Shown piece by piece: positions 3,795 through 56,673 of a DNA stretch of 64,000 bases. Position 1 is the first letter of the stretch. Every line of letters begins with the position of its first letter. The DNA is from a phage. The position numbers and the translations under genes are program-made. The stretch is from assembly GCA_018296565.1 (NCBI GenBank), contig GCA_018296565.1_3935.1; one strand, written 5' to 3'. The notes beneath the pieces were generated by a model. That model made no database searches and had not been told where the DNA came from. It worked only from the letters and a program-made list of their open reading frames with translations.

Positions 3795-4580
3795 ATGGGT
3801 ATTGTAAAAATAATCAATGGTGATATCTTTGCCGCATTTGATAAAGGTAAGTTTGACATCATCGGTCACGGTTGCAACTGTATGAATTTAATGGGTGCAG
3901 GTATCGCTGACAAGATTTCTAAACTTTACCCAAAAGCATATGAGACCGATACAGAAGTTTATCTATATGCAGGTGGTATAGGACACAAACCCTGTGAAAA
4001 TTTACTGGGTAATTTCTCTGTAGCACGTTTAAAACAAGGTCGTATAGCTAACCTTTACACTCAGCTTAAGACTGGTAAAGATGCCCGATACAGTGCTTTA
4101 GAGTCATCTTTGAAACAGCTTAACAGATACTGTGAAGTCAATCAGTTGAAGAAAGTCGGGTTACCTATGATTGGTGCAGGTATCGGTGGGCTAGACCCTC
4201 AAGCCGTCACAGTTATCATTAATCAGGTGATGAAGAGTGTAGATGTTTATCTATATGTCTATGAAGGAGAGATGTACCACAAGTTACGCTCAGGTTGGAA
4301 GAACTACTGTGAACCAGAATACTTTGCAGGTGTAGTTGTGTTCACGGATAATGCAGTTACCCTCTTCAGACGAAGAAAAGGTAAGATACATCAAAGTAAC
4401 CCTCCGGTTGAAAAGATGTCTCTAAGTAACGCTCTAGTTACCCACCTGTCAAAGAGCAATCACAGAATTGCTGTAACATTTGGTAGTGATGCAGAAGCTT
4501 ATATCTATGCAAGAACTGATGAGGATATCGAGGCAATCTTCTCTTCACCAGAAGTTACCTTCTTAGACGCAAAGAACTAA
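3795..4580 (+). CDS. macrodomain protein (ADP-ribose processing, TARG1/DarG-like) with C-terminal extension
   Basis: INGDIF...DIIGHGCNCMNLMGAGIADKI and ...GLPMIGAGIGGLDPQ match macrodomain glycine-rich loops as in TARG1-type enzymes. Confidence 0.55.
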   Translation: MGIVKIINGDIFAAFDKGKFDIIGHGCNCMNLMGAGIADKISKLYPKAYETDTEVYLYAGGIGHKPCENLLGNFSVARLKQGRIANLYTQLKTGKDARYSALESSLKQLNRYCEVNQLKKVGLPMIGAGIGGLDPQAVTVIINQVMKSVDVYLYVYEGEMYHKLRSGWKNYCEPEYFAGVVVFTDNAVTLFRRRKGKIHQSNPPVEKMSLSNALVTHLSKSNHRIAVTFGSDAEAYIYARTDEDIEAIFSSPEVTFLDAKN

Positions 4581-4649
4581 GAAACTCTGTAGGATATTCA
4601 CAATAGCCTAAGCCTTTCTTATCTGGTAAATTTTTCAGGTAAGGAGGGC

Positions 4650-4832
4650 TTTTTCATTTCAGAATTGTGCAGGTAGAGTTCTGTAGAGAAATCTGTAGAG
4701 AGAATTTTGAACTCCAAAGAGAAAATTCATTTTCAAACTGTGCAGGTAATCTCCAAAGAGCTTTTTCATTTTCAAAACGTGCAGACTCCGCTCAGGTCGG
4801 GCAAGAAAAATCATTTTAGAATTGTGCAGGTA
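4650..4832 (+). repeat. four spaced copies of motif tttcatttYcaNaaYtgtgcaggta
   Basis: Copies at about 4650, 4726, 4761, 4808; a fifth partial copy follows the terminator at 2271. Confidence 0.6.
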
Positions 4833-5008
4833 GGTTTTTATAGACAGCCAGCCCAACACCTCTCCCCCTCTTACTCCCCCTCTCCCCAAAAGTCAATAGA
4901 AAAATTTGTAGCGGATTGAAAAATAATTCTTGATTTGCGTTCTGTTTTGTGGTAGTCGTGCGCACCCGTTTCATTACAGTTTTGCCAAAAATATTTTTAA
5001 AATTTTTA

Positions 5009-5037
5009 TTGACTCTTTGAACGTGGTTATCTAATAT
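5009..5037 (+). promoter_or_regulatory. sigma70-like promoter
   Basis: TTGACT, 17 nt, TAATAT, just upstream of first leader of the small-gene array. Confidence 0.55.
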
Positions 5038-5100: not shown

Positions 5101-5289
5101 ATGGCATCAAGAAAAATTAAAGTTGGCGATGAGGTTAACATTAAGCACGAATACTCTTACAAAATGCTAACTATACGCTCTTATAAGGTTTATCAGGTGG
5201 AAGCTATCCACAAAGATAATACTTTTTCCTTAAAAGGGTATAGCGAACGTTTCCCTGCTGAACTCTTTGAGAAATGGAGCGCGAAATAA
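5101..5289 (+). CDS. hypothetical small protein (cassette gene, type B leader)
   Basis: Conserved leader catcaacggggagggaatgaccttcccc...ctggagattcaaaa then ATG. Confidence 0.65.
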   Translation: MASRKIKVGDEVNIKHEYSYKMLTIRSYKVYQVEAIHKDNTFSLKGYSERFPAELFEKWSAK

Positions 5290-5495
5290 TGCTTTACAGT
5301 CGTGAATTGATGGTTACAACTAACGTTAACACAAAGGTAAAACGTTTTTACATGCAAATTTGTGGCGTATGGTCCAGAATATCAGAAGCCGACTATTGCA
5401 ACTATGTAGAAACGGCTATTAATTCTAATTGCTACCTTACAAGAAACACTAAGAAATTTACAAGGCAGACAGCGATTTACTACTACGACAAATAA
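5289..5495 (+). CDS. hypothetical small protein
   Basis: ATG overlaps upstream stop (TAATG), GGAG 10 nt upstream; ORF track start 5274 is an alternative. Confidence 0.5.
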   Translation: MLYSRELMVTTNVNTKVKRFYMQICGVWSRISEADYCNYVETAINSNCYLTRNTKKFTRQTAIYYYDK

Positions 5496-5583
5496 AGTAC
5501 TTTACAGGGGGCTTAAAAGCTGATATCTTAAGCCCCAGATAAAGAGCTTTACTAAATTAACCCTTAAACTAGGAGATTCAAAA

Positions 5584-5964: not shown

Positions 5965-6053
5965 TAAAGTACTTTACAAGGGGCTTATAGTTCGATAAAG
6001 TAAGCCCCAGATAAAGAGCTTTACCACTAAATCCTAAATTGGAGAACTTAAAA

Positions 6054-6347: not shown

Positions 6348-6432
6348 AGTACTTTACAAGGGGCTTAAAAGTTGATATCTTAAGCCCCAGATAAAGAGCT
6401 TTACCACTAAATCCTAAACTGGAGATTCAAAA

Positions 6433-8022: not shown

Positions 8023-8107
8023 AGTACTTTACAAGGGGCTTATAGTTCGATAAAGTAAGCCCCAGATAAAGAGCTTTACCACTAAATCCTAAACTGGAGA
8101 TTCAAAA

Positions 8108-8811: not shown

Positions 8812-8902
8812 CAAATAAAGTACTTTACAAGGGGCTTAAAAGTTGATATCTTAAGCCCCAGATAAAGAGCTTTACACAGTCCTTAAACTAGGAGATTAAA
8901 AA

Positions 8903-9151: not shown

Positions 9152-9236
9152 AGTACTTTACAAGGGGTTTATAGTTCGATAAAGTAAGCCCCAGATAAAG
9201 AGCTTTACCACTAAATCCTAAACTGGAGATTCAAAA

Positions 9237-27686: not shown

Positions 27687-28240
27687 GATACTTAAAATAT
27701 GTTTCATGGATTTTCTTAGCTTTGTTAGAACCATTTGCAGCAACACTAGCAGTCATCTTAGCACCTTTCGTAGTTCCATTCTACAGTGAGAAGAAAGGGC
27801 ATCTACCTTTTGGATTCAGATGGATGGAGACCTATGACAACCCTATTGATGGTGACAAAGGCCACGTTGAGAGATGGGCTAAGATTAGAAAGATTGGTAA
27901 GCTTGGTGTCTACATGCAGAGAGTTGGATGGCTCTGGAGAAACAAAGCTTATAACTTCTCTTACCATGTATTAGGAAGAGATGTAAAAGACGTTACTAAG
28001 TGGAAAGGTAATATCAACGTAAGTTCTAACCCTGAAGATAATCAAACAGGTTATCTCCTAATGTGGAACAGTAATGCTTGGGGATTATTCGCTTTTATTC
28101 CATCAATTAAAATCTTTGGTAAACAGTTTTACTGGAGAATTTATATTGGATGGAAACTTAAAAGTGTTGTCCCAGAAGAAAGAGCATTCTCAAGGGAAAG
28201 AGTTATGTTGGCATTCTTTATTCATCCACTGAGAAAGTAA
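27683..28240 (+). CDS. hypothetical membrane-anchored protein (inside tRNA array)
   Basis: N-terminal hydrophobic segment WIFLALLEPFAATLAVILAPFVVPF; 185 aa. Confidence 0.5.
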   Translation: MRYLKYVSWIFLALLEPFAATLAVILAPFVVPFYSEKKGHLPFGFRWMETYDNPIDGDKGHVERWAKIRKIGKLGVYMQRVGWLWRNKAYNFSYHVLGRDVKDVTKWKGNINVSSNPEDNQTGYLLMWNSNAWGLFAFIPSIKIFGKQFYWRIYIGWKLKSVVPEERAFSRERVMLAFFIHPLRK

Positions 28241-28248
28241 AGATTTAA

Positions 28249-28324
28249 AGGGGATTAGTTTACAAGGTTAAAACCTCGGTCTTTGAAATCGAAGAAGTTG
28301 GTTCAATTCCAACATCCCCCGCCA
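28249..28324 (+). tRNA. tRNA-Gln (anticodon TTG)
   Basis: Anticodon loop ctttgaa, unpaired position 1-72 (A-C), T-arm gttggttcaattccaac, CCA. Confidence 0.7.
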
Positions 28325-28326
28325 AT

Positions 28327-28405
28327 GCTCCATTACTCCAATTGGCAGAGAGGCCAGACTTAAAATCTGTGTTATGTATCGGTTCGAATCCGATATGGAG
28401 TACCA
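28327..28405 (+). tRNA. tRNA with anticodon TAA (Leu by anticodon), variable arm about 7 nt
   Basis: Acceptor gctccat/atggagt, anticodon loop cttaaaa, T-arm atcggttcgaatccgat, A73, CCA. Confidence 0.55.
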
Positions 28406-28410
28406 AATTT

Positions 28411-28486
28411 AGCGGTATAGCATAACTGGCAATGCAACAGTCTCTGAAGCTGTCCTATTAAGGTTCAAATCCTTATGCCGCTGCCA
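28411..28486 (+). tRNA. tRNA-Gln (anticodon CTG)
   Basis: D-stem gcat/atgc, anticodon stem acagt/gctgt, loop ctctgaa, T-arm taaggttcaaatcctta, CCA. Confidence 0.7.
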
Positions 28487-56343: not shown

Positions 56344-56673
56344 TTAATCTGCCAACCTTAAATTAAAATTAACACCAAATTTTTCACAGACACCCAACAT
56401 ATACTCAAGAGAGACATTCCCAGTGAGGTGGATTATGTTGGATACACGAGCTTGAGAGATACCACAAATTTTAGCAACTTGCTCTTGAGAAAGACCTCTG
56501 GATTTAATCTCTCTCTTAAAACGATGTGCAACGAAATCCCTCATCTCGTCTACATCCATTGGACAAATATAACTCTCCATTTCAGCCTCTCTATCAGCCT
56601 CCCAATCATCTTGTGGAGCATAAGGGTCAAAAACCTCATTCATCTTTCTTCTTCCGTTTACGTGAAGTATCAA
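56344..56673 (-). CDS. helix-turn-helix DNA-binding protein (XRE-like)
   Basis: LSQEQVAKICGISQARVSNI resembles an XRE-type HTH. Confidence 0.5.
   Translation of the reverse strand: MILHVNGRRKMNEVFDPYAPQDDWEADREAEMESYICPMDVDEMRDFVAHRFKREIKSRGLSQEQVAKICGISQARVSNIIHLTGNVSLEYMLGVCEKFGVNFNLRLAD

Follow-up and report, generated by a model that had tools for sequence, protein, structure and literature searches.

Four conserved direct repeats form a putative protein-binding platform in an early intergenic region of Felix O1-type phages

Genomic context of the array

The DNA analysed here is a 64,000-nt stretch of phage sequence, hereafter the window, whose 5' end falls within rIIB. Over the 2 kb around the repeat array described below it is 98.6% identical to Enterobacteria phage KhF3, a Felixounavirus (Ounavirinae, Felix O1 group), and shares 90-98% identity with more than 150 Felixounavirus genomes. 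Classical typing phages, Felix O1 and its relatives are also widely applied in biocontrol and therapy. The 2010 Felix O1 genome paper described the temporal control of transcription as unknown (PMC3185647), and our literature search found neither a paper describing the array nor transcript or binding data for any Ounavirinae phage.

The array lies within a 520-nt non-coding gap, conserved throughout the subfamily, which separates a macro-domain 'phosphatase' gene (3795-4580; 261 aa, Pfam Macro) from a series of small early genes, the first of which spans 5101-5289. Upstream of the array, a terminator scan identified the intrinsic terminator hairpin of the rII-PNK-'phosphatase' transcription unit (4610-4651, + strand), which is annotated as a rho-independent terminator in KhF3, wV8 and ASO1B and whose T-tail leads straight into the first repeat unit. 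Downstream, an AT-rich upstream tract and a sigma-70-type promoter for the small-gene array, TTGACT-17-TAATAT, were found by promoter scan at 4986-5037 (+ strand). A promoter is annotated at this place in ASO1B, and a like arrangement is present in Erwinia phage M7 and in locus L064, which lies on a distant contig of ~88 kb. The order of the elements was constant in all lineages, namely intrinsic terminator, array, 100-250 bp, AT-rich tract, TTGAC(T)-type promoter and first small gene. In public records the array is either unannotated or covered by small ORFs in which we found no coding signal, and some records mark only the terminator and the promoter.

Directly 3' of the fourth unit lies a variable module (4833-4888, + strand), which in the window consists of the C-rich tract CCTCTCCCCCTCTTACTCCCCCTCTCCCC and has a mean column entropy of 0.95 bit. 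Our alignment shows this tract to be shared with Mooglevirus and the Erwinia phages; in about half of the sampled Felixounaviruses it is replaced after unit 4 by an unrelated sequence, GTGGGGATGTCGCCATTTCTCACAAGGCTACC, with a sharp junction, which we compared in loci L014, L017 and L019-L026. The module is probably not part of the core element. The C-rich tract is anti-Shine-Dalgarno-like. The EC106 and Andreotti records, together with several IMG/VR contigs, end ~290-415 nt past the phosphatase gene, at or shortly beyond the module junction; assemblies tend to end after unit 4 because two alternative modules swap there.

The module is followed by a second conserved non-coding block of 72 nt (4889-4960, without assigned strand), in which 47 of the 72 columns are invariant and which carries inverted repeat I4. 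It contains AAAAGTCAA (TTGACTTTT on the minus strand), a mirror image of the -35 element of the rightward promoter (5003-5017). Judging from its sequence, this block is possibly a leftward, divergent promoter or another protein-binding site. In Erwinia phage M7 a leftward promoter, TTGACG-18-TATACT, is predicted in the interval that separates the array from the rightward promoter, at a site that may correspond to this block; promoter scans of the window and of phage Bas63 flagged no leftward promoter.

Architecture of the repeat units

Four units were identified on the + strand by a repeat finder and by reading of the sequence. Their TCATTT elements start at 4654, 4727, 4766 and 4811 and are thus 73, 39 and 45 nt apart, and each unit has a fixed length of ~32 nt with the architecture (A/G)AG(A/G)G-W5-TCATTT-N7-GTGCA-G, the final G being replaced by T in the Erwinia phages. 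A weight matrix was built on 44 distinct instances of the unit from relatives and used to score the units, all of which are on the + strand. Unit 1 (4644-4675; GAGGGCTTTTTCATTTCAGAATTGTGCAGGTA), with TCATTT at 4654-4659 and GTGCA at 4667-4671, scored 47.4 bits; unit 2 (4717-4748; AAGAGAAAATTCATTTTCAAACTGTGCAGGTA; core 4727-4732 and 4740-4744) scored 43.7 bits; unit 3 (4756-4787; AAGAGCTTTTTCATTTTCAAAACGTGCAGACT; core 4766-4771 and 4779-4783) scored 36.7 bits; and unit 4 (4801-4832; GCAAGAAAAATCATTTTAGAATTGTGCAGGTA; core 4811-4816 and 4824-4828) scored 40.0 bits. The highest score in 20 shuffled windows was 8.1 bits. The four spaced copies that the initial annotation had reported are borne out by these spacings and by scores far above those of the shuffles.

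The same annotation had described all four motifs as containing tgtgcagg, and in this respect it needs amendment. The string TGTGCAGGTA is present in three units and is replaced in the third by CGTGCAGACT; since the third copy (4766-4787) reads TCATTTTCAAAACGTGCAGACT, only three of the four units literally contain tgtgcagg, and unit 3 is a variant without it. For the 22-mer TCATTTYNRAAYTGTGCAGGTA we observed three matches at zero mismatches, vs 0.01 expected from shuffles. A partial copy had also been claimed to follow the terminator at 2271. What is found there is merely a shared terminator tail, TTTTTCATTTCAG, which is common to the terminators of this phage, has no GTGCA and scores below the 8-bit listing threshold, and the claim falls.

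No inverted repeat was found inside the units when dyad symmetry was tested, and the weight matrix is asymmetric. The predicted intrinsic curvature of the array was unremarkable, between the 13th and 75th percentiles. The longer spacer, between units 1 and 2, contains a short direct repeat, two copies of TCTGTAGAGA at 4680-4698; at the same place the lineage of L047 and L081 has an inverted repeat, ATCTGTA...TACAGAT.

Distribution of the motif within the genome

The genome was reconstructed as the window plus the remaining 24 kb from KhF3, the 98.6% identical phage, and scanned with the weight matrix. Four strong sites and one weak site were recovered, all on the + strand, with nothing further above 12 bits in the window and the 24 kb of KhF3. 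A relaxed pattern, allowing up to 2 mismatches, gave 32 matches in the window vs 29.7 expected, which is the level of chance. Two 9-mers reading GTGCAGGTA, at 3895-3903 and 4174-4182 inside the macro-domain gene, were considered and rejected as sites because both encode Gly-Ala-Gly-Ile macro-domain loops.

The weak site is solitary (472-503, + strand; GCGGCCTTTTTTATTTGTATTTTGTGCAGAGT), has one mismatch to TCATTT-N7-GTGCA, and scored 12.2 bits vs a shuffle maximum of 8.1. It is located directly 3' of the rIIB terminator, and its GTGCAG sits in the spacer of a promoter-like site, TTGTAT-17-TATAAT, for the gene at 545-1093. In Mooglevirus-type relatives its TGTGCAG is kept while the flanks vary. 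The initial annotation had missed this site, the only additional copy, and a weak one, that the genome-wide motif search brought to light. The product of gene 545-1093 has a signal-peptide-like N-terminus.

Conservation of the array across relatives

We fetched ~30 Felixounavirus and Mooglevirus loci, and every one of them has four units in the same order, with spacings of 73-77, 39-41 and 43-45 nt. Mooglevirus keeps the array though its flanking protein is only ~65% identical. Four units reading TTTTTCATTTTCAATTTGTGCATAG, at spacings of 37, 37 and 39 nt, are present in Erwinia phage M7 (Kolesnikvirus), and in the Erwinia phages the array is the only stretch of the gap that Blast picks up. The number of units is not the same everywhere: some lineages (L047, L081, L128) have three, and at least five are found in L064, again downstream of a macro-domain gene.

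Among 22 aligned relatives, 40 of the 44 columns of the TCATTT and GTGCA blocks are invariant, with a mean entropy of 0.028 bit, and a C/T change in the TCATTT of unit 1 is among the few variable core columns. In the same alignment the entropy is 0.46 bit for N7, 0.46 bit for the inter-unit spacers and 0.57 bit for the sigma-70 promoter. Conservation of the array exceeds that of the flanking non-coding segments with which it was compared, the early promoter included, and the array is under strong purifying selection at the level of DNA sequence. The W5 tract switches between AAAAT and TTTTT among instances, which fits a constraint on DNA shape and not one on codons. The 5' block reads, according to lineage, CCAAAGAG or GGGCAAG, CTGGCAAG, or AACGAT, and such lineage specificity is the pattern expected from co-evolution with a phage protein.

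In scans of viral and metagenome collections, true arrays were confined to Ounavirinae-like contigs, and the remaining matches that we read were tail-fibre coding repeats or unrelated tandem repeats. No array was found in these scans beside a recognisable Rep or regulator gene.

Coding potential of the array

Several records annotate ORFs over the array, namely wV8 gp13 on the + strand and Bas63 g96 and g97 and Mijalis gp118 on the minus strand, and a small gene for a repeat-containing protein would accord with several frames that are open across the array and with units 2-4, which are in frame because they lie 39 and 45 nt apart. A minus-strand ORF also gave a weak PHROG match (E=0.008), the sole PHROG match obtained. 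However, variation was equal among codon phases (entropies 7.8/8.7/7.6), and the frame is broken by the spacing in Mooglevirus (41 nt) and Kolesnikvirus (37 nt) and by a 2-nt deletion in wV8. Neither a start codon nor a ribosome-binding site is conserved, no Pfam match was obtained, and the records disagree on strand and frame. The chance that these annotations describe a real gene is negligible in our estimate. The earlier description of the region as holding only weak overlapping ORFs holds good, as none of them is kept across genera and variation is without codon periodicity. Our finding corrects dubious gene calls in many records.

Possible action at the RNA level

The repeats might instead act in a read-through transcript, or in an antisense transcript from a leftward promoter near 4890, as sites for an RNA-binding protein or nuclease or as a sponge. 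The location between a terminator and promoters makes low-level transcription likely, a leftward promoter is predicted in M7, and the mirrored TTGACT is conserved in the window; in addition, the units are U-rich with CA steps, and an anti-Shine-Dalgarno-like C-rich tract follows the array in many genomes. On the other hand, an Rfam search returned no relevant match at E<=10, and RNAalifold gave a weak consensus fold, at -16.4 kcal/mol over 217 columns, with an unfavourable covariation term of +0.34 and one compensatory pair among 33. The A-run/T-run switch in W5 makes no difference to DNA shape but does to RNA sequence, the leftward promoter was not predicted in the window or in Bas63, and the C-rich tract is swapped for unrelated sequence in about half of the genomes. 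We looked for tRNA-like elements at the array and found none. On balance, a function at the RNA level appears improbable. The repeats are real and restricted to this locus, and they are neither coding nor a structured RNA.

Tandem promoters

The initial annotation had offered two readings, an operator array or a promoter class recognised by a phage-encoded factor, and these fared differently. Under the second, the units would be tandem phage-specific promoters at which host RNA polymerase and a phage factor drive rightward transcription, with TCATTT as the factor box near -30. The unit, at 32-38 bp, is promoter-sized, and every unit is directed toward the downstream genes. One reading of unit 1 is TTTTCA-17-TAGAGT, and a -10-like hexamer persists at this place in relatives (TATATT, TATTAT, TATAGT); in this register TCATTT lies at about -32 to -27, which is the position of the MotA box in T4. 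However, a promoter class should recur through the genome and this motif does not, the -10 is not kept in units 2-4, the distance to 'TA' is shifted by 2 nt in the Erwinia phages, and the most conserved bases lie away from the -10 and -35 positions. A sigma-70 scan flagged nothing within 4650-4832 on either strand, and the proteins scanned included none resembling MotA, AsiA or a sigma factor. With neither recurrence nor a -10 at fixed distance, we consider a promoter class very unlikely, whereas an operator array fits all of the results. A minus-strand promoter candidate inside the Erwinia array, TTGCCA-17-GAAAAT, was rejected as it is absent from other lineages.

Host and phage candidates for the binding protein

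The array is most likely a docking platform for one putative DNA-binding protein, as judged from the organisation of its sequence. A single-locus cluster, an invariant bipartite core, free spacers and conservation across genera all speak for binding sites. The points against this reading are that no binder was found among 26 neighbours by Pfam search, that the units have no dyad symmetry, unlike most HTH operators, that their spacing (37-45 and 73-77 bp) departs from strict multiples of the helical repeat, and that the predicted curvature is unremarkable.

Such a protein could be a host factor recruited by the phage, for example DnaA, IHF, Fis or a response regulator. The core is identical in phages of Escherichia, Salmonella, Citrobacter and Erwinia, as expected of a factor present throughout the Enterobacterales, and the Erwinia form CTATGCACA, on the other strand, matches the DnaA box TTATNCACA at 8 of 9 positions. 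Against this, a scan of 185,579 species' genomes gave 40 matches, none of them titled as an enterobacterial genome, the assignment being judged from titles. Felixounavirus units match the DnaA box at only 6 of 9 positions, unit 3 changes a critical base, and the 5' block is lineage-specific. Recruitment of a host factor is in our opinion a rather slim prospect. Comparison by eye with consensus sequences gave no convincing match for IHF, Fis, CRP, NtrC, MarA, sigma-54 or sigma-E.

Among phage proteins, the product of 56344-56673 (minus strand) had been named in the initial annotation as a candidate, and it is indeed a Cro/C1-type HTH protein (HTH_3, E=2.6e-9) and the sole HTH regulator found among the window ORFs screened. 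Felixounavirus, Mooglevirus and Suspvirus encode this protein. A search of the array-carrying Erwinia phages did not detect it, although the 99-aa query may miss distant homologues. Because it is undetected there and the motif has no dyad, we regard this protein as a possible but not a favoured binder. A Pfam search of 26 neighbouring small proteins revealed no DNA-binding, Rep-like or initiator-like domain.

A regulatory complex at the boundary of two early transcription units

We infer that a protein binds the units and that transcriptional control is the outcome. The four units would be sites for a single sequence-specific DNA-binding protein, most likely phage-encoded, and would act on DNA where the rII-PNK-phosphatase unit adjoins the strongly promoted small early genes. 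The ~32-bp site would comprise three recognition patches about one helical turn apart (the 5' block, TCATTT and GTGCA), with AT-rich sequence between them; since the patches are one turn apart, one protein or oligomer could contact one face of the helix. A complex of multiple copies could assemble over ~190 bp. It could either prevent upstream transcription from reading through, or set the timing of the adjacent early promoter(s) or silence them. The site at 472-503, overlapping a promoter, may be a second operator of the same regulator. That the array and this second operator serve a regulatory nucleoprotein complex at the boundary of the two early units is a proposal we make tentatively, at somewhat below even chances.

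The position of the array agrees with such a role, as in all lineages the repeated sites lie in a promoter-control region bounded by the terminator and the early promoter. Overlap with the promoter would be expected of a classical operator. The array ends ~100 bp upstream of a weak promoter-like TTGATT site near 4931, which was read by eye and flagged by none of the scans, and ~180 bp upstream of the strong promoter at 5009, and both distances count against an operator.

Possible function as a replication origin

The units could alternatively be iterons for a phage initiator, with the AT-rich region at ~4960-5010 unwinding, aided by transcription from the strong promoter(s) nearby. At a single locus there are four direct repeats in one orientation (+ strand), more than the minimum of three looked for in iterons, and across lineages three to five non-palindromic repeats of the same orientation form one cluster per genome. 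The recognition blocks are one helical turn apart, as in the Rep-iteron complexes of plasmid RepE and pi. The least stable 40-bp stretch of the gap, at 4969, falls in the 99.7th percentile of the window, although lower stability is found at more than 12 sites of the window. In L064, ~200 bp of AT-rich TTAACA repeats come after the array. The region has strong promoters on its flanks, and the 520-nt non-coding gap is itself conserved subfamily-wide.

Several observations stand against this. No initiator-like gene was found among the 26 neighbours by Pfam, and the units, 37-77 bp apart, are spaced more widely and less evenly than classical iterons at ~22 bp. Likeness to the DnaA box reaches 8 of 9 positions only in the Erwinia and L064 lineages and is 6 of 9 in the window, and GC skew merely tracks the direction of transcription. 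The phage has a T7-like replisome, with a fused primase-helicase and a separate DNA polymerase, and in T7 such a replisome works without iterons. The array of Bas63 lies at 64.1-64.4 kb, and a knockout-mapping report describes ~46-66 kb of the Bas63 genome, at the level of the region, as uniformly non-essential (bioRxiv 10.1101/2024.10.10.617714). On that indirect evidence, the segment is more in keeping with an accessory regulatory site than with a sole origin.

The absence of an initiator among the neighbours, the irregular spacing, the moderate duplex instability and the non-essentiality indicated by the Bas63 regional map together weaken the origin reading, and iterons of a phage initiator seem unlikely to us. 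We are similarly doubtful of the broader possibility that the array serves Felix O1-type phages as their origin of replication or as some other control hub that is essential in nature. On this broader reading a phage protein without recognisable DNA-binding domain would read a tripartite, asymmetric site of ~32 bp, and, if true, this would constitute a new site/protein pair in a classical phage group. The 32-bp unit offers a precise bait for its putative binding protein. As the segment appears, from the regional description of Bas63, to tolerate insertions, the array is also a defined target for engineering.

Comparison with known systems

The array resembles iteron origins, such as phage lambda ori, those of plasmid RepE/pi and T4 oriE, in being a single cluster of 3-5 non-palindromic repeats in the same orientation, with blocks about one helical turn apart and with an AT-rich stretch and promoters adjoining. 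It differs from them in its longer unit (~32 bp), its wider and irregular spacing (37-77 bp) and its want of a recognised initiator gene (among 26 neighbours) or convincing DnaA boxes; the segment is also, according to the Bas63 regional map, dispensable.

With regard to transcriptional systems, p4 of phi29 is a small phage regulator that binds between the early A2c/A2b and the late A3 promoters and forms a multi-protein complex which switches transcription. As in our array, four sites extend over ~200 bp of an intergenic control region in a lytic phage. The p4 sites are inverted repeats, CTTTTT-N15-AAAATG, which overlap promoters, whereas the array has asymmetric sites located 100-360 bp upstream of the rightward promoter, and no p4-like protein was identified for them. 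The operators of P1 C1, which are 17 bp long, bound by a phage regulator and scattered over many promoters, are asymmetric like our units, and absence of symmetry thus does not exclude an operator. Unlike the P1 operators, the sites described here are clustered at one locus and belong to a strictly lytic phage. In T4, dozens of dispersed middle promoters carry a MotA box near -30 and a conserved TAnnnT -10. TCATTT of unit 1 would occupy the MotA-box position if that unit were read as a promoter, but the array motif is not dispersed and its -10 is not conserved.

Genome ends and other features of the window

A genome terminus or packaging site at the array was considered and rejected. The physical ends of phage UAB_Phi87 have been determined experimentally (PMC4837284), and its record has a 542-nt exact direct repeat at both ends, which maps to 27908-28449 of the window at 95-98% identity. 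From this match, the ends of the present phage are probably inside the tRNA cluster. Upstream of this cluster and of the putative terminal repeat is a gene (22002-22373) for a 123-aa DUF5681 protein (E=2e-14) with a basic, glycine-rich N-terminus.

The end of the Andreotti record (L002 3267-3289; positions 1-23) is the reverse complement of sequence ~60 nt inward (tgcagaccacactcaggtc) and is annotated as 'repeat_region'; this inverted duplication is most likely an assembly artefact. The record of Staphylococcus phage SA1 (GU169904.1, 147 kb) contains the Felixounavirus region considered here at 128106-130092 with 91-95% identity, and one or two 'Campylobacter phage' records match it too. The SA1 and 'Campylobacter phage' records are probably chimeric or contaminated.

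Downstream of the gap, between 5400 and 10900, a promoter of the form TTTACA-17-TAAAGT/TATCTT recurs before the small genes, at 5493-5551, 5973-6001, 6353-6381, 8028-8056, 8824-8852 and 9157-9185, among others. A hairpin, GGGGCTTAA...TTAAGCCCC (repeat I1), is embedded in the promoter near 5493-5551, and such repeats are annotated in wV8 as DR_1 to DR_9. These small-gene promoter repeats are similar to the promoter-early stem-loop cassettes of T4-type phages, which shuffle small genes.
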